Positions 1,185-62,758 of a stretch of 64,000 nucleotides of DNA are shown in pieces (the stretch's first letter is position 1; each line of letters starts with the position of its first letter). The notes under the pieces were generated by a model. It did no database searches and had not been told where the DNA came from. It saw only the letters and a program-made list of their open reading frames with translations. Both the position numbers and the translations under genes were made by a program. Source of the stretch: Candidatus Zhuqueibacterota bacterium (GTDB taxonomy: Bacteria > Zhuqueibacterota > Zhuqueibacteria > JANLFK01 > Oleimicrobiaceae); assembly GCA_024655945.1 (NCBI GenBank), contig JANLFK010000001.1, positions 588,116-652,115 on the forward strand, written 5' to 3'.

Positions 1185-1970
1185 TCACTTCCTCAGGTCG
1201 ATGTAGATGTGCCAGCCGATGGACCTGGTAAGCCGTCTGGGAAGGGCATTGAAGGCCGGCACAAAAATCGAATTGTACAGGCCGACCAACAGCCCGTGTC
1301 GTTTCACCGTCTTCATGGGAAAGCCGGTCATGTGCATCTTGATGCTCGAGAACTTGCCGAACAGGCGGCGCACATCCCGCCGCGAATGGGTGGCAATCAG
1401 CGGGGCGTCCACTCCCTGCGTCTCGTAGCCGATCCCGGAGACGCGCACCAGCAGATTGTACCAGGACCACTTGTGGTAGAGCATGACCACCGCCTCGCCG
1501 CCGGGACGCAGCACGCGATAAATCTCGTCGATAGCCTTTTGGATGTTTGGCGTGCACATGAGCACGCCGATGCAGATGACCACATCGAAAGAGTTGTCCT
1601 CGAAGGGCAACTCCTCGGCACTGGCCACGCGCACGTCCCCTTTGAGGCCACGGTATTCCAGATATTTGCGGGCCAGCGCCACGCCGCTCTCGGTCAGGTC
1701 CACCGCCGTGACGATGGCCTCGTTGCGCGCGTACTTGATCAAGTCTCTCCCCCACCCGCACCCCACCTCAAGGAGCTTCTTGCCGGCAAAGTCGGCGTGG
1801 CGAGCGTACAGCTCTTCCTCCCGGTATTTGATGTCATAGTAGCGTTCCAGCTCGTCGAAGAACTCCGGCGTGCCAGGCTCTTTGTCGGTCACCTCGATGC
1901 CGATGACATTCTCGTTCCAGTACTTCTTGACCTCTTCGATGGTCACTGGGCCTGGGGCACTAGTGGTCAT
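1185..1970 (-). CDS. class I SAM-dependent methyltransferase (Methyltransf_11-like), paralog A
   Basis: 261-aa ORF; LEVGCGWGRDL, NSFDVVICIGVL, YRVLRPGG; ATG at 1970 with AAGGAG upstream. Confidence 0.85.
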   Translation of the reverse strand: MTTSAPGPVTIEEVKKYWNENVIGIEVTDKEPGTPEFFDELERYYDIKYREEELYARHADFAGKKLLEVGCGWGRDLIKYARNEAIVTAVDLTESGVALARKYLEYRGLKGDVRVASAEELPFEDNSFDVVICIGVLMCTPNIQKAIDEIYRVLRPGGEAVVMLYHKWSWYNLLVRVSGIGYETQGVDAPLIATHSRRDVRRLFGKFSSIKMHMTGFPMKTVKRHGLLVGLYNSIFVPAFNALPRRLTRSIGWHIYIDLRK

Positions 1971-2294
1971 TTTTCTCCTTGCACCTCCGCGCTCGCATTC
2001 GTCCCTCTCGCCGCTCTTGCGGCTCCACTTGCGACGCCCTAAATATACGTCCAGGTAGCTGCTGTGCGGAAGGGCCCTCCAAAGTCGGGAGAACCCCTGC
2101 CAAGAACAGCAAGCCGGTTCCCGGGAAGATTCTCCCGAAATGAAAACCCACGTACTGGCCTCTACGCTCTCTTTGTGTGCCCTGCCCGCCGGGACTCCCG
2201 TGCGCCGGGGAGGTGCCTATGCCCGCACAACTTTTCCCTTGCATTTCTCTGCGAAAGCTGTAACTTAGTCACCCAGGAGGTGCACGAGGAGAGT

Positions 2295-4208
2295 ATGGCA
2301 CACGTCATCATCGGCACGGCCGGACACATCGACCACGGCAAATCGGCTCTGGTCAAGGCACTGACCGGCACGGATCCGGACCGACTCAAAGAGGAGAAGG
2401 AACGGGGTCTGACCATTGACCTCGGCTTTGCCTTCCTGGGCGAGCGGGCGGCGTTCATCGACGTCCCGGGTCACGAGCGTTTTGTCAAGAACATGGTGGC
2501 AGGGGTCAGCACGGTGGACGCCGTGCTGTTCGTGGTGGCGGCAGACGACGGGGTGATGCCGCAGACGCGCGAACATCTGGACATCCTCACCCTGCTCGAA
2601 CTCAAGCGGGGGGTCATTGCCCTCACCAAGATTGACCTGGTCGACAGCGAATGGGTAGCCATGGTGACTGCCGACGTGCGCAATCTGGTGCAGGGCACCT
2701 TCTTACAGGAGGCGCCCATCATTCCGGTGTCGAGCGTCACTGGTGAGGGGATCGCACAGCTACGCCAGGCGTTAGATGAGCTCATCGCCAGCACCCCTTC
2801 GCGCTCCGACCAGGGTGTGTTCTGGCTCCCTGTGGACCGCTCGTTCATCATGAAAGGCTTCGGCACGGTGGTCACCGGCTCGGTGCTGTCGGGCGCGGCA
2901 AAGGTGGGTGACGAACTTGAGCTCCATCCCCAGCGCCGCTTGGTGCGGGTGCGTGGTTTGCAGACGCACGGCCGCGACGTCACGCTCGTGCGCGCAGGGG
3001 ATAGGGCAGCCTTGAACCTGGTTGGCGTTCACAAAGAGGAAGTGCAGCGAGGGGACGTGCTGGCGAGCCCGGGATACTTCACGCCCTCGACCCTGCTGGA
3101 TGTGCGCTTGCGCCTTTTGCCGGCAGCCGGACGCTCCCTGCGCCACAACACGCGCGTCCGCCTGCACGTGGGCACCCGCGAGCTCATGGCTCGGGTTTCC
3201 CTGCTCGAGCACAACGACCTCCCCCCCGGCGGGTCGACGTTCGCCCAGCTCCGCTTGGAGGAAGTCATTACGGCACGCCGCCTGGACCGCTTCGTGATCC
3301 GGCAGTACTCCCCGCCCATGACCATCGGCGGCGGCGTGATTCTGGACGCCAATCCGCGCCCGCATCGGCGCTTCCGCCCGGAGGTGCTGCAGCAGATGGC
3401 CGCCTTGGAGAAGGACACTCCAGAAGAGACGGTGATGGCTTTGCTGCAGGCGCAGCCGCTGCAGCCCCTCTCGCTCGCTCAACTCACCAAGGGGACAGGA
3501 CTTGCCCAGCCGAACGCAGAAGAACTGGTGGGGCGCCTGGTGCAGAACGGCACGCTGCTCAGGCTCGGCTCTGAGCGCCAGCCGACCTACGCCTTGCCTG
3601 GCAGCGTAGTGGCGGTCAAAGAGGCGGCGCTTGCGGAGTTGCGGCGCTACCACGCCCAGTTTCCCCTCAGAGCGGGCATGCCGCGCGCCGAATTGCGCGA
3701 GGCGATCGGCCGTGGGCTGGACCAAACCCTCTTCACCGCCGCACTGGATGAGCTCCGGCACAGCGGCGAGGTCAAGGAGAATGGCGGCCTGGTCGCCCTG
3801 TCCACGCACCGCATCGTGCTCTCCCCTGCCGATCAAGCCCTGCGAGAAGAGCTATTGCAGGCACTCGTCGCGGCACGCTTCTCCCCGCCTAGCACCGAGG
3901 AGCTATCAAGAGCCTTGGGCCGGAGGCGTGAAGACGTGGAACGCGTCCTGGCGGCACTGTACGCCCTGGGCGAAGTGCTCCGCGTAGAGGAAGGCATCTA
4001 CCTGCCGCAAACCCTTGTCGCCGAGGCCCAGAAGCGACTTGCCGACTACTTTGCCACCCACGAGGAAGTGACGGTGAGCGCCTTCCGCGAAATGCTGGGC
4101 ACCAGCCGCCGCTATGCCCTGCCGCTTCTGCTCCACTTCGACGAGCAGGGGTTCACTGAACGCAGGGGGGAGGCGCGTGTTCTGAGGAAGAAAGATGCAG
4201 CCCGATGA
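2295..4208 (+). CDS. selB: selenocysteine-specific translation elongation factor SelB
   Basis: N-terminus [20 protein letters not shown] (G1 P-loop), DVPGHERF (G3), ALTKIDL (G4), long C-terminal winged-helix-type extension; ATG at 2295 with AGGAGG upstream; the track ORF starts earlier at 2064. Confidence 0.9.
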
Positions 4209-4233
4209 GATTTCCGGCGGCCGGGGAACGACC

Positions 4234-5001
4234 ATGAGGTCTTCGCTTCTCCTCCTCACTGCACTTTGCCTGCTGCAGGCAACGCCGGCAGCCTGCCAAA
4301 AGGCCGGGATCTTGTTGCGCGGCCCCGTTGCCCACGGACAGGCCACGCCGCAGCAGGCCGATTCCATAGCCGCAGAGTTGCAGCAGTGCTTAGCGAGCAC
4401 AGGTGTGCTGGAACTGCTGCCGGCAACCACCCCGGGGCTCGAGGGGTCGGCACAGACTTCAGGGCACCAACCCCTCGCCGACGAGGTCATCGAGGGAAAG
4501 CTCACCAGGACAGGTGGCAGTTTTGCCCTGACCCTCACCTCCTCTCTGACTGCCACACGCGCGGTTGAAACATTCCATGGCGAAGCGGCGACTCTGGCTG
4601 AGCTGTGCACTCGGCTTGTGCCCACTTTTGCGCAGCAGGTGGCCGAACGCCACAAGAAGGGGCGGCTCGTCATCCGCATCGAACGTGGCTTCGACATCTA
4701 CCCCATGGATAAATACTTCGGCGTGTCTGACCCGTTCGTGGAGGTGTACGTCGACACGTTGTTGGTGGGCGTTACCCAGGTGCGCCAGGACGAAAAAGAC
4801 CCTGTCTGGGACGAGGAGTTCCTGCTCCCTGCGGTTGAGGCCAAGACGATAACGCTGTTCGTTTTCGACAAGGATGCTCTTGAGCACCGGGAGCTCATTG
4901 GCCGGGTCACTGTGCCCTGGGGCAGGGACGGCGTCTACTCCATCCGGCGCCCCCGTTACGTGCGAGATTTCGGGAAGGTTCAGGTCTCATTCGGTCGCTG
5001 A
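4234..5001 (+). CDS. secreted/lipoprotein-like protein with CsgG/LpoB-like N-domain and C-terminal C2-like domain
   Basis: Signal-like N-terminus MRSSLLLLTALCLLQATPAAC; C-terminal DPFVEVYVD...KDPVWDEEF...FVFDKDALEHRELIGRVTVPW resembles C2 domains; start overlaps the selB stop region (alternative start 4195). Confidence 0.6.
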   Translation: MRSSLLLLTALCLLQATPAACQKAGILLRGPVAHGQATPQQADSIAAELQQCLASTGVLELLPATTPGLEGSAQTSGHQPLADEVIEGKLTRTGGSFALTLTSSLTATRAVETFHGEAATLAELCTRLVPTFAQQVAERHKKGRLVIRIERGFDIYPMDKYFGVSDPFVEVYVDTLLVGVTQVRQDEKDPVWDEEFLLPAVEAKTITLFVFDKDALEHRELIGRVTVPWGRDGVYSIRRPRYVRDFGKVQVSFGR

Positions 5002-5061
5002 CTCCGCCCGATTTTTCCCTTGAGGCTTTGCCCCATTTTGCTTACATTTAACAGGTACCAC

Positions 5062-5157
5062 GGGAATGGATGGGTCCCTGGTGGGCCCCGCGGGCTTCAA
5101 ACCCGTTGTTCCGTGCTGAACAGTGCGGAAGGTGGGTTCGATTCCCACACATTCCCG
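5062..5157 (+). tRNA. selC: tRNA-Sec (selenocysteine tRNA), anticodon UCA
   Basis: 96 nt; 8-bp acceptor stem GGGAATGG/ACATTCCC (one G-A mismatch), 6-bp D stem GGGTCC/GGGCCC, anticodon loop CTTCAAA with UCA at 5097-5099, long variable arm 5109-5130, T arm GTGGG-TTCGATT-CCCAC, discriminator G; directly downstream of selB. Confidence 0.8.
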
Positions 5158-5166
5158 CAACAGGTC

Positions 5167-5193
5167 AGAAAGGACTCCTCGGTGGAGTCCTTT
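5167..5193 (+). terminator. perfect 11-bp hairpin after tRNA-Sec (possible terminator, weak U-tract)
   Basis: GAAAGGACTCC-tcggt-GGAGTCCTTTC, followed by CTGGCTATG (no strong T-run). Confidence 0.35.
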
Positions 5194-5415
5194 CTGGCTA
5201 TGGGCGGAAGCATGGCGGGTGCCCTCAAGAGCCGACTTGCCAACCAGAAGACAAATACCGCGCGACATCTCCTGCAAGGGGGTGTCTGCGAAATACGCAG
5301 GAGCCGTGGGGTCTTGAACCCGGCCCTCGATCTTCTGCAAAAAGTGACGACCGCCGGTAAATTCAAGGAGTCAGTGGAGTAAGGCACGAGGATCGCGAGC
5401 AGCACTGCGGGTAGA

Positions 5416-8400
5416 ATGGACAGCGAGAGCACGTGGGATGGCACACGCGGACCTTGGCGGCGAAGGCCGAGGCTTGTGGTACCTCCCCTTCTGGGGCTTG
5501 TGCACTTTGCGGCGCCACTGCTGTTCTTCTTAGCGGCTCCCACCGTCTTATCAGCAGATGAACTGCAGCAGTACGGCGTAGGTCGCCGCGACACTACCTT
5601 TTACCGCGCCGGGCGCACACTGCACACCGCCGTTTACTACCCTGCCACCAGTTCCGGCAGCGGGGCCCCCCTGAACACCTCCGGAGCACCCTATCCCCTG
5701 CTGGTCTTCGCCATTGGCAAACGCATGCAGGTGGAACACTATCTGAGCTACTACGAACACCTGGCAGCCAGTGGCTATGTGGTGATGGCGCCTCAGTTTC
5801 CGGACGTGGACAGTCCCAGCGCCTACACCTGGAACGAGGACCTGCGCGATTGCATCACCCAGGCGCTGAATGCGCGCACCGTGCCAGGCTCCGTGTTCTA
5901 TCAGGCGATAGATCCCGGCAAGATAGGGCTCTTCGGCCACTCCTTCGGCGGCGGCACTGTGGTCGGCGTGGCCGCCGACGACGGCCGTGTGCGGGTGACC
6001 TGCGCCATCGCGCCCAATAACCCGGGCAACTACTCCTTCAACAAGATGCCCAATGTGCACACGCCCATTCACATACTCGGCGCCGAGCTGGACGCCATCA
6101 ACTCGGTGGAGGCCATCGGGCGCCCGCTCTACGAGCGAGGTAACCCCGACAAGGCCTTATTGGTGGTCAAGGGCGGCAACCACATGCAGTTTTCCGACTA
6201 TACCGGTTTTGACAGCGTGGATACACCCGCGACCATCACCCGCGCCCAGCAGCTGGCCATCACCAAGGAGCACCTGGTCAATCTCTTTGACGCTTACCTG
6301 AAGGGAAGAAGTAGCGCCCGGACACAGCTTTACGGCACCGCGACCCTCACCAAAGACAGCGTCTTTCTCTGGTTTGAAACGCAGGCAGCCAGCGCCTCTC
6401 GCCTGGTGTACGTTTCCGGAAACGGACAGAGCGCTCCCCCTGGACAGCTCACCCTCTTGCCGGTAGTGTTCAAGGTGGTGGATGCCCAAGGGAATGCGCT
6501 GCCCCGTCACACGGTGCACTTTCAAATCACGGCTGGCGGCGGCAGCCTGGCCGGACAGACCTGGCGGGACTTGGAGACCGACGCCGATGGTCTGGTAAGC
6601 ATCTATCCTCGTCTCGGACCCTCTGAAGGGGTGGCCAACAACCTCATCGCGGTGAGCGCGTACAAGGGCACGGCCCATCTCACCGACTCTCCCCAGACTG
6701 TGGCGCTCTCGGGCACGACGCAACCGCTGCGCCGCATTGTCGTGCACAGCGATCCTGCCACGCTCACATACCAAGTGGACAACGTCGCTTACTCCAGCCC
6801 ACAGACATTTCTCTGGCCGACGGGCAGCAGCCACACCGTTTCGGCACCCTCGCCGCAGGGTGAGGCGGCCGGCACGCGATTCGTCTTCTCCTCCTGGAGC
6901 GACGGCGGCGCCCTGTCCCACGCCTACACGGTGCCCGCGCGCGACGACACCCTTGTCGTCACCTTCCGGACCCAGTACCTGCTCACGTTGGCTTCTGCCT
7001 ACGGCGCGCCCACCGGTGGTGGATGGTACGATGCCGGCAGTGTGGCTTCCTTCCGCGTGGATCGTCATGTCCCGGCCGGCCAGGCTAGACGCATGAGCTT
7101 GAGCGGCTGGGTGGGCACTGGCTCCGGTTCCTACTCGGGCCCGGACTCCGCCGCCACCGTGACCATGCACGGGCCTGTCACCGAAACGGCTATCTGGCAC
7201 ACCGAATTTTTCCTCACCACTGCTCAGAACCCGCCTGCAGGGGGCACGGTTTCGCCGGCACCGCCTGGCGCCTGGTACGACAGCAGCGCCACGGTGACGC
7301 TGGTGGCCACGCCTGCTCCCGGCTACGCTTGGGGCAGCTGGTCCGGCACCATCAATAGCACCGTCAACCCTCTATCGTTTGTCATGACAGGGCCCACGGC
7401 AGCCACGGCGAATTTTGTTCGCCTCGCCCTGCTCACCTTTCGCACCGAACCACCTGGCCTGACCGTTGTGGTGGACACGGTCAGCTATGTCATACCGCGC
7501 ACTTTCTCGTGGCTCCCCGGCTCGGTGCACACTGTGTCTGCCACCTCGCCACAGGCAGGGGGCGCTGGGGTGCAATACCTCTTTGACTCGTGGAGCGACG
7601 GCAATCCACGCACGCACAACCTCGTCACACCGGCCCGGGACGACACGCTGGTGGCGCGTTTCCGCACGCAGTTTTTCCTTGCCGTGCAGTCGGCGCATGG
7701 CTCTCCGCGCGGTCAAGGGTGGTATGACAGCGGCGCGCAGGCAGCTTTCAGCGTCACCACCCCCGATTCACAGGCTGGCACGCGCCACCTGTTCCAGCAG
7801 TGGACAGGCGACTTCACGGGCACCTCTCCGTCTGGAACCGTGCTCATGGACCGGCCAAAAACCGTCACCGCCCTGTGGAAGACCCAACATTTGCTCACCG
7901 TGCTCAGTCCGTACTGCACGGCTTCCGGCGCCGGCTGGCACGACGAGGGTAGCCAGGCGCTCTTCCGCGTGCAGCCATGCGTCGTGTACGACAGCGCAGG
8001 CACCAGGCGGGTTTTTGCCGGATGGACCGGAACCGGGCCAGGTTCCTACACCGGCCCAGACAGCACAGGGACGATCGTGGTACAAGGTCCCGTCACCGAG
8101 GTGGCAAGCTGGCAGACTCAGTACCAGTTGACCGTCTCTTCCCCCTACGGCAGTCCTGTCGGCGCAGGTTGGTACCCGGCCGGTGCAACGGCCCATTTCG
8201 CCGTGACCTCGCCTGAAGTGGAAGGCCTGAGGCGCCACGTCTTCCGCCGCTGGAGCGGCCACTTTTCCGGCACTCAGCCGGCCGGGACACTGGTCATGCG
8301 CGGCCCGCGGACGGTCACCGCCGAGTGGGGCGACCAGTTCTACCTCGCCATCACCGCGGAGCCGCCCGAGGGCGGGACGGTGACTCCCCAACCTCCTGGC

Positions 8401-16797: not shown

Positions 16798-18749
16798 GTG
16801 CGAATTGAGAGTACGAGAAGCCCCCGACGTGCCAAACCTTCGGGCTTGGCCTGGGATGGAAGTTACTTGTGGTTGTGCGACATCAGCGAGAACACCGTGT
16901 GGAAGCTTAGCCGAACCGGCCAGGTGGCGGCCAGAATGTTTGTTCCCGGTACTTATCACACTGGTCTGGAATGGGACGGCCATTCTGCGTGGCTGGTGGA
17001 CGGCGAGGCTGAACTCATCTACGAACTGGACGGCTCTGGCAACACTCGGAACTTCTATCTGCCGCCGGGGACCTTTCCCAGGGATATTGCCTGGGACGGC
17101 AGTGATCTTTGGATTGCAGATGCTGACAACGACAGAATCTACAAGTTGAGAGGTCCCATCATGGGGCCTGAGCCGAGGGCTTCGTTCACGGTAACCCCAA
17201 CGTCCGGTTTCCTGGAGACCCTTTTCCTGGTTGACGCTTCCAGTTCACAAGACCAAGTTACTCCCCTCGCGGACCTCGAGGTTCGGTGGGATTGGGAAAA
17301 CGATGGGGCGTACGACACCGAATACTCCAAGGTCAAGACTGCAAACCATCAGTACGCCTCACCGGGAACCAAGACAATTAGGCTTGAGGTCAAGGATACG
17401 GACGGGTATACCGGCACGACAACAAGAAGCGTCTCAGTAAGCGCGAGGGCCCCTCAGGCTTTCAGCCTAGTTTCTCCGCGATCAGGTGATACCGTTAGAA
17501 CGTACCTGCCCTCATTCAAGTGGCGGACCGCGCGAGACGCTGACCCAGGAGATACGGTGCGCTATTTTGTTCAGTATTCGAAAAGCTCCTATTTCTCCAT
17601 CTTCGATACACTCGCAGCAGGCACCGACACCCCTGCTGCCGTACGTGATTCTTTGCAGCAATTACAGAGGTACTATTGGCGGGTGGAAGCGGTGGATCGC
17701 TGGGGAGCAAAGACCCTGAGCTCTCAAAGTTGGAATTTCCTGGTCGCAGACCTCACGCCCCCCTCTTTCACAATCGGTCTCCTGCAGAATCCCATAATCA
17801 CAGAGGATCTCGATCTGTACGCCATCCCCAACGAGACACTGGATCAGCGCGGGGTTCAGTGTACCGCCAACGGGATCCCTGTTCCTATGTCGGAGCTCGA
17901 CGCTGCGCGTCGAATCTATGTTGGTGATTACCAGCTCTCGGGGGAGCGGAAGACTGGTGGTCATCATGAGAGGCAAAGATGCGATATGGGGAAATGAAGG
18001 TGCCGACAGCCTGTCCATCTCGGTGCAGCTAGTCAAAACAGTACAGGGGGGGGACGATCGCTAGTCTCGATGGGGCCTTGCATGCACAGTTCCCCGCTGG
18101 TTGCCTTCCTTACGACGCTTACGTCTTGGTTCTACAAGCGAACCAGGAACCAGGACGGAGGGAAGGCCTCTGTAGAAGGACAATGGAAAGTGACACAGTC
18201 ATCGCCATTGGGACAAGCTACGGAATTGAGCCCGCAGGACTCCGGTTATCCGACTCTGTGCTGTTGGAGGCCAGTTACTCGGAGAGGGCCTTGGCAGACC
18301 TAGATGAGGAGAGACTAGAGCTTGCGATCAGAGAAAGTGACGGCTGGAGATCTCTCGGCGGTGTAGTGGACAAGAAGACTGACAGAGTGACCTTGCTGGT
18401 CGACCAGCTGGGAGAATACCGTCTGCAGTGGAATCAGAAACGTCGGACGTCAGGGAGTTTTCCTTCGCACTTGGTCCTTTTGCCAAACTACCCCAATCCG
18501 TTCAATCCGACCACTACCCTACATTATGGACTGCCTGAGCGATTTTCGGGCTGGGTGGAGCTGGGTATCTACGACGCCGCTGGGCGCGAAGTGTGTTGCC
18601 TGGTGGATGAGCCTCAGAACCCCGGGTATTATTCTGTCGTATGGGACGGGAGGGATAGCTCTGGTCGGCAGGTGCCAAGCGGAGTGTACTGTTGCCGTCT
18701 GCGGGCAAACAGGCTTTCCATTGCAAGAAAGATGATCTTCCTACGCTAA
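16798..18749 (+). pseudogene. T9SS-type surface protein (WDG beta-propeller blades + PKD domain + type-A C-terminal sorting domain), frame-disrupted and lacking an N-terminal signal
   Basis: Frame 1 16798-17997 (GLAWDGSYLWLCD, GLEWDGHSAWLVD, DIAWDGSDLWIAD; PKD-like WDWENDGAYD), switch to frame 2 near 17940-17960, then to frame 0 at the G8 run 18046-18053; frame 0 continues to the sorting domain LLPNYPNPFNPTTTLHY...GVYCCRL ending at 18749. Confidence 0.55.
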
Positions 18750-19843: not shown

Positions 19844-21383
19844 ATGAGAGAACCCAGTGGTCCATTCCGTCTTTTGATCATTTTGCTGGTATTTGTTGGC
19901 ATTGGCGCCCACGCCGGAGAAATCCGCCCCGTGAGCCCGGCCACCGTCCTGGGGCAGGTGGGGGTCGAGTTCGACGTGTATGTGCGTGTGGATCAGGTAA
20001 GCAATCTCTTCGGGGTCAGTTTCGTTTTGACCTTGGACAACGGCTATCTGGAGGCGATTTCCGAAAACCCCGAGTCCTTCATGGGCAGTGACGTGGTATT
20101 TTTGGGCCAGCACAATAATGCCGCCGGCACAGTGGCCATCGGGATTTCCCGCAAAGCTGGGCAGGGAGGCGTCAGCGGCACAGGCAATGTCGCACGGGTG
20201 CGAGAGTTGTGCAAGGGGCCACGCAGGACAGAGTCCTCCGGTTCGGGCTCGCCTCCGTGGAAGCCATCGACCCCTTGGGCGCGTCGATTGTGCTCGCTCC
20301 AGGTGAAGCCACGACTACGCTGTCCAGGTTGGTCACGGTGTGGCCGGGCGATGCTGATGATAACGGCACTGTGAACATCTTCGACATTAACCCGATCGTT
20401 GCCAATCACTGGGGCCGGACGGGGCCGCAGCGGCCCAATGCCTCTGTAAACTGGACGGGCCAGGTATGCCCACCATGGACACCGCCTGACGCAACCTACC
20501 CGACACTAACGGCGACGGCCTGGTGAGCATTTTCGACATTAATGCCGTACCGGTCAACTTCGGCAAGACTCACCCCGGAACCGCCGGGGCCCCACTCCCG
20601 ACACCGGTGGAACCCCAGGTCGTTGCGCTTGGCAAGGAAAGCGGGGTCACCTCACCGCCCATCGCGGCAAAGGGCCCGCAGCAGGTAGACAAGAACCAGG
20701 AATTCTGGGTAGACATCGAGGTTGGAGCCTTAGGCAATCCCGTCACCAACCTCAAGGTGGTCTCTTTCGAACTGACCTACACGAACACTGCCATAGTTGA
20801 CTACCTCAGTTACGAGGTGGGACCTTTCTTGACGGGCGCGATAGCAACCGTGATTCCGGATGACCCCAACGGGAAGGTAAGCGCGTCGGTCTATCGAACC
20901 ACTGGCAGCAACTCCGGCTACGGGGTAGTCTTGCGGCTGAAGTTTCGCACAAGCGCACAGGCCGCAGCGGGGCAGACGGTAAGCTTTGCCTTCGCCCAGG
21001 TGCTAGCCAACAGGGAGGACGGTAGCGTTCAGCCCTTGTCGCCCATTGGTCAGGTGGTCACCATTCAACCTGGCAGCGGCATACGCGCTGACGACTTCAC
21101 GCCCACAGAGTTCGAGCTGGTGCAGAACTACCCCAACCCCTTCAATCCTGGGACGGTCATAGAGTACCGTCTCCCGCAGGCCAGCAGGGTGACGCTGCAA
21201 GTGTACAACTTGGCTGGAGTAAAGGTGGCCTCGCTGCGGGACGGGATGGAGAGTGCGGGTCGTCATTCGGTGGTCTGGGATGGCCGCGACGAAATGGGCA
21301 GGCCTGTTGCAGCGGGGGTATACATGTGCAGGCTGGTGGCCGGAACCTACGACAAGACCATCAGAATGCTGCTGCTCAGGTAG
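19844..21383 (+). pseudogene. cohesin-like / dockerin-like / cohesin-like protein with T9SS type-A sorting domain, carrying two frame disruptions
   Basis: ATG at 19844 (AAAGAGG upstream), signal MREPSGPFRLLIILLVFVGIGAHA; cohesin-like VSFVLTLDNGYLEAI; dockerin repeats GDADDNGTVNIFDINPIV (frame 1) and DTNGDGLVSIFDINAVPV (frame 0); second cohesin-like VVSFELTYTNTAIVDYL; C-terminus LVQNYPNPFNPGTVIEY...GVYMCRL. Reading requires frame 2 -> 1 -> 0. Confidence 0.55.
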
Positions 21384-21682: not shown

Positions 21683-23850
21683 TCACCACCCCACCTCCGC
21701 CACCGCCCGCCAGTGCCGGCCGGGCATGGGGTAGCCGGCGGCCACCTGGTACTGCACGTCGAAGAGGTTGTCCATTCCTGCCCGGAGGTGCCAGGTCACG
21801 CCCCAGAAGGGCACGCGCACGCCCACATTGGCATCGGCCACCGTGTGCGCAGGAAGGCGCCGCGTGTTGGCTTCGTCCGTGTAGCGCGACCCCACATAGG
21901 AGGCAGTGACATGGCCGTAGAACGGGCGACCCTGAAAACCAGCCCGCAACGAGGCCATGTGTTCCGGCCGGTAGATGAGCCGCTTGCCCTGAAGACCAGG
22001 TATGCCACCAGTATCTACCGCCCGCAGATGGCTGTAGTTCGCCTCAAGGATGAGGCGCTGCGCAAACCCCTCCCACTTGAGCCGCAGCTCCTGCCCCGTA
22101 ATCTCCGCCCTGCTCACATTGGCAGGCGACCACTTGTAACTCAGCGGGTCCATCCCCCAGACGATGAGGTCGCGGGCCCAGCGTCGGTACAAGCTGAGCT
22201 CGCCGTGCACGCGTCCGGCAGCCGGCACCCTCACGCTCAGCCCACCATCAATTTCCGTGGTCCGTTCCGGCTTCAGGTTGGGATTGCCCACGGTAAAGGC
22301 GTCCTCCGGCCAGTAGAGGTCGTTGAATGTCGGTGCGCGGAAGGAGCCACCCACATTGCCGCGTATCGCTACGTGGCTGTGCCGCACCCTGCTCAAAATT
22401 ATCCCCACCTTCGGACTGGTGACGAAACCAACCCCCTCGTAGTGGTCGATGCGCGCCGTCGGCAGAAGGTTGGCCTGCCACTCGGGGCGACCGAGCAAGC
22501 CTTTCCAGGCGGCATCGGCCTGGGCAAAGGCGCCGAAAGACTCCCGCGCGTGGGTACCCAACGAGGTACCTCGCGAGCGCTCGTTCAGATAGCTGGCCCC
22601 CAGGGACAGCACCTTGTCCTGTGCCAAGGGCAGGTCACCCTGCAAAGAGGCACCGGCGCTGACGCCTTTGTTGTCGGCATTCGACGGCCAGAAGGGATTG
22701 GGGTCAACATAGCGGGTGGCGAGCTCGTGCCGGAACCCTGTCGCCTGTACGTGCACCTTGCCGCCGAGGCTCGTCTCCACACCCAGCTGCACGCGGCGGC
22801 TGTCGTCGGTCTGCTTTGCCTCGGGACTCGGAAAGGCCAAGGATCCAGGCGCACCCCGCTCGGCATGGGACCACTCGCCGGAAAGGGTGAGGCGTGTGAG
22901 TGGAGAAGACTGCCAGCTCACCTTGCCGAAGAGTTCATCCATGGCAAACGAATTGTTGATGCGCCTGCTCTCCCTTTCCCTGTCCGTGGCTGGGTCCTTG
23001 GTGCGGTAAATAAAGTCGCCGTCGCTGCGGGCGCGGCTTGCGGCCACCAGCAGGCCGACATCGCCCTGCTGGTGACTTGCGCCAAAGTGCGCCGAGCGGC
23101 TGCCCCAAGAGCCCATGCCCGTGGCAAGCGACAGCTGAGGCCTCACTCCTCCCCGCGGCGCGCGTGTGATGATGTTCACCACGCCGGCGGCGGCATCCGC
23201 CCCATAGAGCGAGGAGAGCCCGCTACGCACAAATTCAATGCGCTCCACCGCAGTGAGCGGCAGCAGGCCGAGATCGTACCCCCCGGCTAACGGCGAATTG
23301 AGGCGCGCGCCATCCCAGAGGATGAGCACCTGTTCCGCCGAGGAGCCGCGCACCGACAGCGACTTCATGGCCGCATCCGAGCCATAGCTTTTCACAAAGG
23401 CCCCGGCCACAGGCCGCAAGGCATCAGCCACGGTGCTGCCGTTGACCATCTCTATGTCCGCGGCGGAGACCACCTCCGCCGACACGGGCAACTCCCAGCT
23501 CAGCGATCTGCCACGCTTGCCGGTGACCATCACTTCCTCAAGTTCAATGATGGTCGGCACCAGGCGCACGGACACCTGTTGGGCGCCGCGATCCGCAACG
23601 CGGAGCGTGAGCAGCTGCGGCGCATAGCCCATGTAGGAAACGCGAAGCTGGTACGTTCCTGCCCGCAGCTTGGGAAGCACGAAACGGCCCATTTCGTCGG
23701 TGGCGGCGCCCTGCCCGCCTGGCATAACACTGACGTTGGCGCCGGCGAGCGGTTTGCCGGTGGTGTGGTCCACCACCAGGCCGGTCACTTGCGCAAGGGC
23801 ACTCGAACAAAGGACCGCCACACAGAGGAGCGTCAGGAAAAGCGTCTTTT
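21683..23850 (-). CDS. btuB: TonB-dependent receptor (CarboxypepD_reg-like + plug + beta-barrel), probably cobalamin receptor BtuB-like
   Basis: ATG at 23850 with GGGAGG upstream; signal MKTQKTLFLTLLCVAVLCSSALAQ; plug motifs, C-terminal aromatic AVAEVGW; lies downstream of a cobalamin riboswitch. The btuB assignment is by context. Confidence 0.8.
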
Positions 23851-24421
23851 GCGTCTTCATCTTCGCCTCCCGTGGAACCCGGTTCACTGCTGTCTCTCTC
23901 CTACCTAACACTCCGATGGCCGCCGGCACCAGCAGCGCAAAGATTGCGGTGTTGACGGCGGCGTGGGTCAGGTAGAACACCGCCCCATAGGCGTAGGCTC
24001 CGAGCAAAGCCGGGAGGGTGAGCCGGGTCATCACGAGAAAGCCCACCGTGGTGAGAAAGTCGAAGGTCACCGTGAGGATGAAGCCGCTGGCCGCTAAAAC
24101 CAGCACTTGTGGCCAGTGGATTTTGTGCCGCCGCGCCCTCCTGCCGATCAGCCCCCCCACAAACCCCGCCAGGCCCATCCCCAAGACCTGGCTGACCAGC
24201 AGAGTGACAGAGGAGATGCCGTAGGGGTTGATGGCCGCGTAGAGAAGCTCGCCGACCATGGCCGTGGCCAGTCCTCGCCCGGCACCAAGGAAGGCGCCGG
24301 CGACAAAGGCAGTGGCGGTCACCAGCTCCACGTTGGGCACGCTGCTGAGCAGGTAGCCCAAGGCGACCATCAACCCGGCGAACATGGCCATGCTGGCCAA
24401 AGAAACGGTGCCCGGTCTCAC
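23851..24421 (-). CDS. ECF-transporter S-component-like small membrane protein (possibly cobalamin-specific); 3' end undefined
   Basis: Hydrophobic multi-TM translation MAMFAGLMVALGYLL...LLVPAAIGVLGRR; GTG at 24421 with GAGGAGGAA upstream (alternative ATG 24391); no stop codon before the btuB start, same frame. Confidence 0.55.
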
Positions 24422-26460: not shown

Positions 26461-27536
26461 TCAGGGATGCTGCGCTAAGAACTCGGTCACTGCCGTGGCA
26501 AACTCATCTGGCGCATCGGCAAAGAGAAAGTGGCCGGCCTGCGGCATGGTGCGCGGCTCCGCATGAGGGAGCAGTTGCGCGTACGTGGCGGTGGCCGCCT
26601 CCGGCTAAATGTCCATCCCTCCGTGGAGAATGAGCGCCGGTGCGGTGACCCGCTGCAAAGCCGCGCGGTAGTCGTGCTTCTTGCCCATGCTGAGATACTT
26701 CGCCTGCACCATCCAACCGCCGTTGCCGTGGAAGCGAAGCGTGCTGGGCACCGGCATGCCCTTCGCCTTTGCGGCAGCAAGGTAGAACCTGGTGAAACGG
26801 GAGTTCAGGCCGATCATCTCCCCCTCACTGCGCGAGAAGAGGTGCTTGAAATCGAGATACTCCTTGAGGAAAGTAGCATAGTCGCTCTTCAGCTCTGCTG
26901 GCAGGAGCGCGCCCACCTCGTCCAGGAGGTTGCCCTCGCCGGGAAACACGAGGAGCTGCGCCGGTGCAATCAACACCAGGGCACGCACATGTTCGGGAAA
27001 CTCCGCCGCGTACAGGGTGGCGAGAAAGGCGCCGATGGAGTGTCCGACCAGGATCAACCTATCCACGCCCAGGATGCGACGGATGCGTTCGACGTCAGCC
27101 ACCTGCGCACCTATGCCGAGGGCCCTATCGAGGTTGAGCATGTTGCGATAGAGGCTCTTGTCGGATAGCCGATCCACTGGCCGCGTTGAGTTGCCGCAGC
27201 CGCGCTGGTGGTAATAGATAACGCGATACTGCGCCGCCAGCTGATGCAGACCAGGTGGTGGGGGAGGTAGGGATAGCCAGGGCCACCGTGCAACACCAGA
27301 ACCTGCGAGCCAGACCCTTCTTCGAAGAAGAAGAGCTTCACATTCGGCTCAACCAGCCAGAGGTTTGCGCCTGCCGTTTGCGGCGGCGGAGCCAGTGGCG
27401 CCCGCAGGTTCTTTGCCTGCCGCACCATTCCTGGTCGGTACAAAGGCTTTCCGGCGGAAACGACAAAGAGCACCCCAGCAACCACCACTACCACAAGCAC
27501 CCCCGCCAGCAGCACCAGCATTACTCTCTTGGCCAC
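26461..27536 (-). pseudogene. membrane-anchored alpha/beta hydrolase (proline iminopeptidase-like) with one frameshift and one in-frame TAG
   Basis: N-terminal part VLVLHGGPG (track ORF 27111..27536); body LAAQYRVIYYHQRGCGNS...LVGHSIGAFLA...ILHGGMDI in another frame (switch at a C5 run near 27260-27264); TAG at 26607..26605; conserved C-terminus PEAATATYAQLLPHAEPRTMPQAGHFLFADAPDEFATAVTEFLAQHP continues in frame to TGA at 26461. Confidence 0.6.
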
Positions 27537-56549: not shown

Positions 56550-56664
56550 GGCTATCCCTCTGTTTTGACCTCCACTATGCCCACTGAAAACTCAATTCGC
56601 CGAATTGAACGAGAAAAAAGCCTTTGGAGTTCCGGCGAAATTCGCATAGATTTTCGCGCTGGCT

Positions 56665-56693
56665 TATATACAAAATTTCCGTCTTTTCGTCAA
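56665..56693 (-). promoter_or_regulatory. sigma-70-like promoter for the gldA operon (TTGACG-17-TATATA)
   Basis: Minus strand TTGACG (plus 56688-56693), 17-nt spacer, TATATA (plus 56665-56670). Confidence 0.45.
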
Positions 56694-57024
56694 CCGAAAA
56701 GTGAGCTGGCAGGGAAGGAGCTGCGGGGAGTGTGGGAAGGCAGACGGTCGCCACCCCCAAGCGGCGACGGTGATCGCCTATGACGGACGGAGCTATCGGC
56801 CAGGGTTTCCCAGCAAGCGCCGGCGGAGAGCCTCCGGCGCCAACCTCGTGCACGAGGATGGACTCAGGCTGGTCTGCACCGCCCGTGTGGCGAAGAGGCG
56901 TGCCTTCGCCGGCCTGATCTGGCCGCCATGACGCCGTGTGGCACTCGCCTTTTGCTCCGATCATACCTGCTGCTCTCGCATGACGCTGGAGGCGCAAGCC
57001 AGTACCCCCATTCCGAGGTCACTC

Positions 57025-60706: not shown

Positions 60707-62020
60707 TCACTTGGGAATAGGAACCACCACTTCGATGCTGGCGCCAGAACCAAAGCTCGACTGGCTCTGCTCCTGCAGGGGTTGTCGCGCATCGACACCG
60801 GGCACAAATCCGGCGCTGAGCTGTTGCTGCGTCTGCTGCAGCCGGTCCAGAGTCGACGGTTTGAGCGCCTCGGCCACTGCCGGAGGTGGCTCGAGGGTCT
60901 TCTTCAGCTCCTGGATGTCCTGGCTGCCCACTTGCATCGCCTCCACCTGGGCTACCGCAGCGTTGGCAGCCTTGAACCTGGGGTCAAGTTCGGCTGCCTG
61001 TGCGTAGGCCTCCCGCGCAGCGTCACACATGCCACGATCTTCATAGTCCAGGCCCTTGCAGTAGGCCAAGAAGGCGAGCATGTTCTCCGTGGGGATGAGC
61101 AGGATCGCATCACGCTCTTCCTGGCTCAAGGGCACGCCGATTTGGTCGAGGATGCGGAAGACCAGCGCCTTCTCCATGCGGAAAAAGTCCTGCACAGAAC
61201 CGCTGATGCGGCGCGGGCCACTGATGGTGCGGCTCCTGGTGTCCACCAGGGCTGCCTCGATGCGCAGCTGCTCCCCTTCGAGGCCCAAGAATCCGCCCTG
61301 CACGACTTTGGCCACGCCCAGCAGGCGGCCCAGCCGCGGCGCAGTGGTTTCGTCGACCAGGCCAGTCATGCCCAGGACAATCTCCTCGAGCAAGGCCTGC
61401 ATCCTGGCCCGTTCGATGACGCGCAGCGCCTTCGCCTTGGACAGGTCGGTGATGAGCATCTCGGCTATGCCCTTCTCCAACGGGTCGAGCTCCTCGGGAC
61501 CGCCCAACCGGGCGAAGTTCAGCACAGCCACCGCATTGTGCGGGATGCGCACGGTATCAAGGGCTGCCTCATTGGCCAAGGCCTGCCGCGCCTGCTCGGC
61601 CAAGCGCCGCCGCAGCAGCACCTGCAGTCGCCCTTCCAAGGCGCGCCTCATCTGGCTCATGCCGCCCACGCGCGTGTACCGCCGGTACATGTCGATGGCC
61701 CCATCCAGGTCGCCGGTCAATTCGTACGCGGAGCCAAGGTAAAAGAGCGTGCGCGCGTCGGTGGAATCCAGCCGGAACGCCCTCCTCAGCACCGAGATCG
61801 CCGCGGCATAGTCCTCCTTGCCATAGAGGGCAATCCCTGTGTCGCGGAGAACAAGTGGGTCTGCGCGTCGCTGCTCTAAGGCGATGGCTAAGTGAAGGAG
61901 GGCAGCGTCGTAGTTTTGGCGGCGTAACTCGCTCTTCGCCTGGCCGTAGTGGGAAGCAGCGCATCCCATGAGGACCAGGCTCAGGCCCAAGGCAAAGCTC
62001 AGAACAAGACTTCTCCGCAC
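60707..62020 (-). CDS. lipoprotein with TPR repeats and CsgG/LpoB-like (TolB-N-like) domain
   Basis: GTG at 62020 six nt after AGGAGGAA; lipobox SLVLMGCAAS; TPR region; domain VAVLNF...GIAEMLITDLSKAKALRVIERARMQALLEE...GRLLGVAKVVQG; paralogous to 62057..62758. Confidence 0.7.
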   Translation of the reverse strand: MRRSLVLSFALGLSLVLMGCAASHYGQAKSELRRQNYDAALLHLAIALEQRRADPLVLRDTGIALYGKEDYAAAISVLRRAFRLDSTDARTLFYLGSAYELTGDLDGAIDMYRRYTRVGGMSQMRRALEGRLQVLLRRRLAEQARQALANEAALDTVRIPHNAVAVLNFARLGGPEELDPLEKGIAEMLITDLSKAKALRVIERARMQALLEEIVLGMTGLVDETTAPRLGRLLGVAKVVQGGFLGLEGEQLRIEAALVDTRSRTISGPRRISGSVQDFFRMEKALVFRILDQIGVPLSQEERDAILLIPTENMLAFLAYCKGLDYEDRGMCDAAREAYAQAAELDPRFKAANAAVAQVEAMQVGSQDIQELKKTLEPPPAVAEALKPSTLDRLQQTQQQLSAGFVPGVDARQPLQEQSQSSFGSGASIEVVVPIPK

Positions 62021-62056
62021 GAGGATTTCCTCCTGTGCCAATGGGCGCCAGGCCCG

Positions 62057-62758
62057 CTACTTGAGATGCACTTGGATCTGCATCAGGCGTTGCTTAGCTT
62101 GCGCGAAGGAAGGGCTCACGGCAAGGGCTTTGCGGTACATCTTGTAAGCCTCAAGAGGCTGGCCGCTGTCCTCAAATTCCAGCCCCTTGGCGTACAGGAC
62201 AGCCGCTTCAAAGGAAGCCTCGCCACTTTCCTCCAGCCGCGCGCGGTCCTCCTTGGTGAGCGCTACATCCAGGTCACGGACAATCTTCTCCGTGAGTCGC
62301 TTGACCATGTCGAACAGCTTGTCGACCTTGCCGGTCTCTTCTTCAGCCTTTATGGTCAAGCCGGTCTCCACTTCCACGATCCGGGCGTCGATGCGCATCT
62401 TTCCGCCGAACATGTGCACATAGCTGCCCAACAAGAGGTGCTTCGCTCCCAACAGGCGACCCACCTGCACCGCGCTCTTTTCGTCGATGAGGCCGGCCTG
62501 GGGCAACTTCATCTCTTCTAAGAGCTGCTGCAGCTGCGCGCGCTCAATCACCTGCAAGGCACGTACCTTGGCAAGCTCGGTGATGAACATGTCGGCCAAG
62601 CCCTTGCTCAGCGCAGCCACCTCGTCCTTCTGCGCCAAGCTGTTGTTCTGGAAGTAAAGCACCGCAAGGGTCTTCGCTTGTTGGGCACCTAAGGGGATGG
62701 CAGCAGTGACAAGAAGAATAGTCAACAGGAGTGCCAAGAGTCGTTTCGAAGCGCACAT
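62057..62758 (-). CDS. lipoprotein with CsgG/LpoB-like (TolB-N-like) domain and C-terminal TPR-like helices
   Basis: ATG at 62758 six nt after GGGAGG; signal MCASKRLLALLLTILLVTAAIPLGAQQ; LAVLYFQNNS...GLADMFITELAKVRALQVIERAQLQQLLEE...GRLLGAKHLLLGS. Confidence 0.7.
   Translation of the reverse strand: MCASKRLLALLLTILLVTAAIPLGAQQAKTLAVLYFQNNSLAQKDEVAALSKGLADMFITELAKVRALQVIERAQLQQLLEEMKLPQAGLIDEKSAVQVGRLLGAKHLLLGSYVHMFGGKMRIDARIVEVETGLTIKAEEETGKVDKLFDMVKRLTEKIVRDLDVALTKEDRARLEESGEASFEAAVLYAKGLEFEDSGQPLEAYKMYRKALAVSPSFAQAKQRLMQIQVHLK

Follow-up and report, generated by a model that had tools for sequence, protein, structure and literature searches.

A probable canonical selenocysteine-decoding locus, with selB near selC, in an uncultured bacterium of the phylum KSB1 (Candidatus Zhuqueibacterota)

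In Escherichia coli, selA and selB are found together, while selC, the gene for the selenocysteine tRNA (tRNA-Sec), lies separately. Bacterial tRNA-Sec has been described as adopting an 8+5 fold, both in Aquifex aeolicus (PMC3711452) and in a survey of bacterial genes (PMC5330540), and SelB, for which a full-length bacterial structure is available (PMC4605307), combines EF-Tu-like domains I-III with winged helices. Here, we analyze a window of 64 kb (the whole stretch of DNA under study) that carries selB and, beyond one intervening gene for a C2-domain protein, selC in the same orientation (Table 1). The window corresponds to approximately positions 109,418-173,417, reversed, of contig Ga0417229_000003 of Joint Genome Institute (JGI) metagenome 3300038743, which encodes the exact SelB. 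The nearest named relative is a Candidatus Oleimicrobiaceae metagenome-assembled genome (MAG) with a SelB that is 78% identical, and NCBI taxonomy places this family in Candidatus Zhuqueibacterota. This is the new name of phylum KSB1, the description of which does not mention selenium (PMC11683472). Both selB and selC are identified, intact, and conserved, and we consider it highly probable that they give this uncultured bacterium, an Oleimicrobiales-like member of KSB1 (Candidatus Zhuqueibacterota), a functional, canonical bacterial locus for selenocysteine (Sec) decoding.

A tRNA-Sec with anticodon UCA had been proposed for positions 5062-5157 in an earlier, sequence-only reading of this DNA, and two independent methods agree with that proposal. 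ARAGORN reports a tRNA-SeC(tca) at 5062..5158 (+) as the only tRNA within the 64 kb. In a search of the whole window against all 4227 Rfam families, RF01852 matches 5062..5156 over the full model (positions 1-91) with 75.2 bits, relative to a gathering score of 47 (E value, 1.3e-13). When the region 1900-5500 was rerun under permissive thresholds, tRNA-Sec was the only meaningful RNA match, and no other RNA element, such as a hairpin resembling a selenocysteine insertion sequence (SECIS) or a leader upstream of selB, was found there. The anticodon TCA is indeed read at 5097-5099, and the discriminator base G73 is G5157. The D stem comprises 6 bp including one U·G (5072-5077 with 5083-5088) and closes a loop of 5 nt, the anticodon stem comprises 5 bp (5090-5094 with 5102-5106), and the long variable arm has 9 bp (5109-5117 with 5122-5130) and a 4-nt loop. 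The proposed 5-bp T stem is present as well (5132-5136 with 5144-5148). The acceptor stem, which had been read as 8 bp, does have eight layers, but only seven of these are Watson-Crick pairs (5062-5068 with 5150-5156), the eighth being an opposition of G5069 and A5149. With 8 nt per acceptor strand, the acceptor and T stems together give 13 stacked layers, the same geometry as in the bacterial 8+5 fold. The UCA anticodon, G73, the 6-bp D stem, the long variable arm, and the single gene copy are likewise shared with bacterial tRNA-Sec, whereas the innermost acceptor layer, G·A instead of a Watson-Crick pair, and the 5-nt D loop differ from the described molecules. Given the agreement of both methods, together with the anticodon, G73, the 13 layers, the D stem, and the variable arm, we assign the gene to tRNA-Sec. 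In one related contig (L210; L numbers denote contigs fetched for comparison), a 97-nt "tRNA-Arg(tcg)" at 3586-3682 (-), antisense to tRNA-Sec and overlapping it, was called by ARAGORN as well; it is almost certainly a spurious reading of the complementary strand.

The identification of selB, also proposed earlier, holds against a curated standard. The protein passes the NCBIfam equivalog TIGR00475 with 352.1 bits (cut-off, 242.25) over residues 4-631 of 637. Its Pfam domains are GTP_EFTU, GTP_EFTU_D2, Beta-barrel_SelB, SelB-wing_2, and SelB-wing_3, with the C-terminal winged-helix extension formed by PF09106 (residues 446-502) and PF09107 (residues 584-630), so that the EF-Tu-like domains I-III and the winged helices of known SelB are all present. 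The length is typical, the G motif TKID is retained, and identity to SelB of other phyla of the Fibrobacteres-Chlorobi-Bacteroidetes (FCB) group is 48 to 55%; we see no notable difference from known SelB. The ATG at 2295 can be taken as the fixed start, since all homologues begin alike and a ribosome-binding site, GAGGAG, is present at 2286-2291. The protein is identical to NCBI entries MCR4437889.1 and MDH7559078.1, both of which are annotated as SelB.

Seven contigs (L001, L002, L207 to L210, and L086, the source contig itself) share a conserved block in which two divergent class I S-adenosylmethionine (SAM) methyltransferase genes are followed by selB, the C2 gene, tRNA-Sec, and a gene for a secreted hydrolase of approximately 1700 residues. 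In all seven, selB is full length and ARAGORN finds tRNA-Sec at the syntenic site. Compared with five relatives, selB has a ratio of nonsynonymous to synonymous substitution rates (dN/dS) of 0.09 to 0.13 at a dS of 1.4 to 1.7, which is near saturation, pointing to strong purifying selection on the gene. Over the same divergence, tRNA-Sec is almost invariant. In a six-locus alignment, 96% of the cells of the structure given above form standard pairs, compared with 43 to 58% when the partners are slid by 1 to 3 columns. The changes that do occur in the tRNA include double-sided ones, namely, a G-C to A-U replacement in the D stem of three sequences and changes in two pairs of the variable arm. 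The low dN/dS of selB, about 0.1, and the near-invariant tRNA with its compensatory changes argue that the organism makes selenoproteins, a claim that is thereby well supported indirectly, though not proven.

Several of our results weigh against a functional locus of the canonical kind. They concern details of the tRNA, the signals that surround it, and the partner genes. As to the tRNA, its 8th acceptor layer is a G·A opposition in place of a Watson-Crick pair, and no 3' CCA is encoded (CAA follows G5157), although other bacterial tRNA-Sec genes show each of these features. Some UGA decoders, such as allo-tRNA or selC*-type tRNAs, have been reported to insert Ser or Cys. The two features set the tRNA slightly apart from its E. 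coli archetype and might suggest that the tRNA in the window is a tRNA-Sec-like decoder of this type, inserting Ser or Cys rather than Sec. We regard this as extremely unlikely, as the tRNA scores well above the Rfam threshold for tRNA-Sec and selC sits in close linkage with a genuine selB. Moreover, among 96 unique bacterial tRNA-Sec sequences collected for comparison, G·A is the commonest state of the 8th layer with 70 occurrences, ahead of A·A (13), C·A (7), U-A (4), and G·G (2), although this sample is biased, since 80 of the loci were fetched through an identical 28-nt 3' half. We see nothing exceptional in the G·A layer. In a small, unbiased set obtained via selB, this position can be G·A, G·G, or U-A. 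A fully paired 5-bp T stem is present in all 96 sequences, and seven paired outer acceptor layers together with G73 are present in 95. Of the tRNA-Sec genes of bacteria, 93% encode CCA, which leaves about 7% in the minority without it (PMC5330540), and its absence is common to part of the lineage to which the window belongs. We therefore retain the assignment to tRNA-Sec.

The 28-nt 3' half just mentioned (5132-5159, GGTGGGTTCGATTCCCACACATTCCCGC), which spans the T arm and the 3' acceptor strand, has exact matches in at least 120 metagenomic contigs and is also found in a Latescibacterota chromosome (L006). Most contigs that share it (loci L087-L166) have either no detectable selB nearby or a distant one (31 to 47% identity). 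By these matches, this part of the tRNA is very widely shared across phyla.

With respect to the signals around the two genes, a scan with promoter and terminator consensus models called neither of the two promoter-like blocks nor the hairpin described below, all of them scoring below threshold. The assignments, therefore, rest on conservation. The element before selC ends 13 nt ahead of the tRNA 5' end, and a TTG...TTT..TA(C/G)ATT pattern recurs at the same distance from tRNA-Sec in all six aligned members of the lineage; we read the element as a putative selC promoter. In the intergenic region 1971-2294, a comparison of the window with L001 and L002 reveals 2228-2267 as the sole conserved stretch, which may act as the promoter of selB. 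Downstream of the tRNA, where an 11-bp perfect hairpin had been reported, a perfect hairpin is indeed present but with 13 bp; its arms (5166-5178 with 5184-5196) enclose a 5-nt loop and begin 8 nt past the discriminator base. Both sides have changed in 5 of its 13 pairs, and 95.9% of cells are paired among the six aligned relatives. A weak U tract, UUUCU, comes after the core stem GGACUCC/GGAGUCC, and the structure is probably a terminator or a 3'-processing hairpin of the tRNA transcript. In the JGI annotation, a gene for a 66-residue protein (5182-5382, +) overlaps this hairpin. Its low codon-usage score, 0.16 per codon, and the lack of a family match suggest that this open reading frame (ORF) is probably not a gene.

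The assessment of the locus is further complicated by the genes that are missing around it. It had been noted earlier that the window contains no selA, selD, or obvious TGA-containing selenoprotein gene, and our Pfam and codon-usage scans concur. No SelA (PF03841) or SelD (AIRS) domain was found in the approximately 45 window genes scanned, and neither of these genes nor a selenoprotein gene is present in a further 7.7 kb past the window's left end. A search with SelA of the Latescibacterota chromosome as the query returned only other phyla among the best 120 matches. On these grounds, one could envisage a relic locus, in which the lineage has lost Sec use together with selA and selD, leaving selB and selC to decay. 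We consider this very unlikely. Decay would not preserve an intact selB, tRNA-Sec, and their signal elements, yet selB is full length in seven contigs and shows a dN/dS of about 0.1 where synonymous sites are close to saturation, the tRNA hardly varies and its changes are compensatory, and the promoter- and terminator-like elements are kept. If the locus is functional, as we favor, selA, selD, and selenoprotein genes presumably exist elsewhere in the genome.

Selenoprotein genes were sought in the window with a codon-usage model trained on long ORFs, which was applied to all six frames to find TGA codons flanked by coding-like sequence. No gene split by an in-frame TGA was found in the 64 kb, a further point on the unfavorable side. 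The weak candidates, TGA codons at 26463 and 57687 on the minus strand and 55441 on the plus strand as well as an upstream extension at 56650-56931, were dismissed, each being either sequence that is not protein-like or the antisense shadow of a real gene. The two methyltransferases beside selB (382-1970) were also considered as selenoproteins and rejected. Their matches to selenoprotein-type NCBIfam models reach 60 to 63 bits with cut-offs of 155 to 460 and cover the generic methyltransferase domain only, and the genes stop at TAA and at a TGA directly before the ribosome-binding site of the next gene. TGA is the commonest stop codon in the window (about 29 of 47 mapped genes). As it ends most genes, UGA is not globally reassigned, and its use for Sec would need recoding of the SelB/SECIS type.

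The arrangement of the locus can be compared with that in other bacteria. In a scan of a genome collection with a generic SelB peptide pattern (species-representative genomes; matches listed at up to 48% identity), 11 of 60 diverse loci have tRNA-Sec no more than 10 kb from selB, and the window is similar to these in having selC near selB and in the same orientation. In 32 of 85 loci, the ORF immediately before selB belongs to a family confirmed as SelA (TIGR00474, 549 bits), whereas selA is not adjacent in the window. Clusters of selA, selB, and selC do occur among the loci fetched for comparison. By these frequencies, it is common for selB and selC to be linked, and a selB without selA next to it is unremarkable. 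What sets the window apart from other sel arrangements is the insertion of an unrelated gene for a C2-domain envelope protein between selB and selC.

The sequence-only reading had described this gene as encoding a C2-domain lipoprotein. The C2 domain and the position between selB and tRNA-Sec, in identical orientation, stand, whereas the lipoprotein label is not secure. The protein matches PF00168 with 50.1 bits (E value, 3.5e-13; cut-off, 22), its sequence matches in the PDB are synaptotagmin C2 domains, and it also resembles the C2 domains of NEDD4 and PKC. The AlphaFold model has a mean predicted local distance difference test (pLDDT) score of 71.5, with a value of about 90 for the N-terminal alpha/beta domain. 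Foldseek retrieves C2 domains of PKC-eta, a Trichomonas protein, and NEDD4 with a probability of 1.00, and the predicted fold of the N-terminal domain comatches TolB and the outer membrane lipoprotein PelC. The identical protein at NCBI is MCR4437890.1, "C2 domain-containing protein." Translation probably starts at ATG 4234 (Met14) rather than at 4195, because homologues begin there. A signal-peptide-like helix is followed by the motif PA[AS]C, reading ...TPAAC in the window, with an atypical Pro at position -3. The putative lipobox residue, Cys34, is conserved in six of the seven family members and is Ser in the closest homologue, P0244. It is this substitution, along with the Pro at -3, that leaves the lipoprotein label unproven.

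The C2 family is tiny, consisting of 7 clusters among 5.8 billion proteins. Besides the window's own cluster, all five clusters for which the context was read have the gene directly after selB, as does L001. Conversely, the gene is present in none of the 80 metagenomic loci that share the 3' half of tRNA-Sec and is absent from more distant SelB loci, too. The methyltransferase pair is syntenic with selB in those close relatives for which the upstream flank was recovered. Together, these observations could be taken to mean that selB, the C2 gene, and selC, possibly with the methyltransferase genes, form a selenium module in which the C2 protein or the methyltransferases handle selenium. We find this highly improbable, because the contigs represent one narrow lineage (SelB 75 to 94% identical) in which vertical inheritance alone explains the synteny, and more distant KSB1 and other relatives have neither the C2 gene nor the methyltransferase genes beside selB. 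In addition, the signal peptide and the PelC/TolB-N-like and C2 folds fit an envelope protein with no known link to selenium, and the methyltransferases, as described above, fall far below the selenoprotein-type cut-offs. Also very doubtful is the related claim that, in this Oleimicrobiales-like lineage, selB is joined with the C2 gene in a conserved operon of two genes immediately upstream of selC, with a selenium-related role for the C2 protein or the methyltransferases; the support for such a selenium role is synteny within a single clade, nothing beyond. If true, it would add a new accessory component to the bacterial selenium-utilization locus, e.g., for selenium handling in the envelope or for methylation. 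Inherited gene order is the simplest cause of the synteny between selB and the C2 gene, as all carriers belong to one narrow lineage, and the predicted location in the envelope gives no reason to tie the protein to Sec decoding. The gene is, thus, most likely a conserved passenger between selB and selC. Its product, lineage restricted and secreted, is the only odd feature of an otherwise ordinary decoding locus.

By analogy with the established knowledge of the bacterial Sec pathway, the locus may be envisaged to work as follows. A promoter of its own would drive selB, probably along with the unrelated gene for the C2 envelope protein, whereas selC would have its own promoter and hairpin terminator. 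The tRNA would receive its serine from the seryl-tRNA synthetase (SerRS), via its long variable arm and G73. SelD would make selenophosphate, which SelA would use to convert Ser-tRNA-Sec to Sec-tRNA-Sec. In its GTP form, SelB is expected to bind Sec-tRNA-Sec through the EF-Tu-like domains and the SECIS hairpin of the mRNA through the C-terminal winged helices, and so to deliver Sec-tRNA-Sec to in-frame UGA codons. For the locus in the window, charging of the tRNA and SECIS binding are expected on these grounds.

Table 1. Features of the selB-selC locus and adjoining genes, in window coordinates
Feature	Position	Strand	Basis or details
Class I SAM methyltransferases, tandem (Methyltransf_11/25)	382-1161 and 1185-1970	-	Divergent from selB
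Promoter-like block before selB	2228..2267	+	TTGCAT 2239-2244, 16-nt spacer, TAACTT 2261-2266
selB, selenocysteine-specific translation elongation factor, 637 aa	2295..4208	+	TIGR00475 and Pfam
Predicted secreted two-domain protein: signal peptide, PelC/TolB-N-like alpha/beta domain, C-terminal C2	4195..5001	+	Pfam, AlphaFold
Promoter-like element before selC	5020..5048	+	TTGAGG 5020-5025, 17-nt spacer, TACATT 5043-5048
selC, tRNA-Sec, anticodon UCA	5062..5157	+	ARAGORN, Rfam RF01852
Perfect 13-bp hairpin, CAGAAAGGACTCC / GGAGTCCTTTCTG, loop TCGGT	5166..5196	+	Inverted repeat, 100% complementarity
Giant secreted protein, about 1700 aa	5416-10587	+	PETase/dienelactone-hydrolase-like alpha/beta-hydrolase domain

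Some further features of the window deserve mention. The giant protein downstream of selC carries four InlB B-repeat (Flg_new_2) domains, a ZU5 match, and a C-terminal FlgD_ig sorting domain of the type IX secretion system (T9SS) type, and two smaller proteins encoded nearby at 18183-18749 (+) and 20523-21383 (+) end in the same FlgD_ig domain. A cobalamin riboswitch (RF00174; 24563-24764, -; 99.2 bits; E value, 1.4e-23) lies directly upstream of a gene for a TonB-dependent receptor with CarboxypepD_reg, Plug, and beta-barrel domains (21683-24400, -), which is presumably a B12-regulated BtuB-like importer. The alpha/beta-hydrolase ORF at 26605-27177 (-) covers only positions 53-210 of the 245 of Abhydrolase_1 and ends at a TAG, and the frame continues to look coding for some 100 codons further, across this TAG and a TGA. 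This ORF may be what is left of a truncated or disrupted gene, or it may be the antisense shadow of the beta-lactamase-family gene beside it. Finally, 60707-62737 (-) is an uncharacterized envelope gene cluster, in which genes for two adjacent proteins with CsgG/LpoB-like domains and TPR repeats are followed by those for proteins of 374 and 462 residues without a family match.

In conclusion, the locus is of an already known kind, a textbook selB/selC pair that standard pipelines detect and public records annotate, and beyond the marking of a lineage it brings no new insight into how Sec is decoded. It does mark this uncultured lineage of KSB1/Zhuqueibacterota as a probable user of selenocysteine. 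This has a consequence for gene calling, as UGA-containing selenoprotein genes elsewhere in the MAG would be truncated by standard ORF callers. Metabolic reconstruction would be affected likewise, for instance, where formate dehydrogenases and hydrogenases are concerned.

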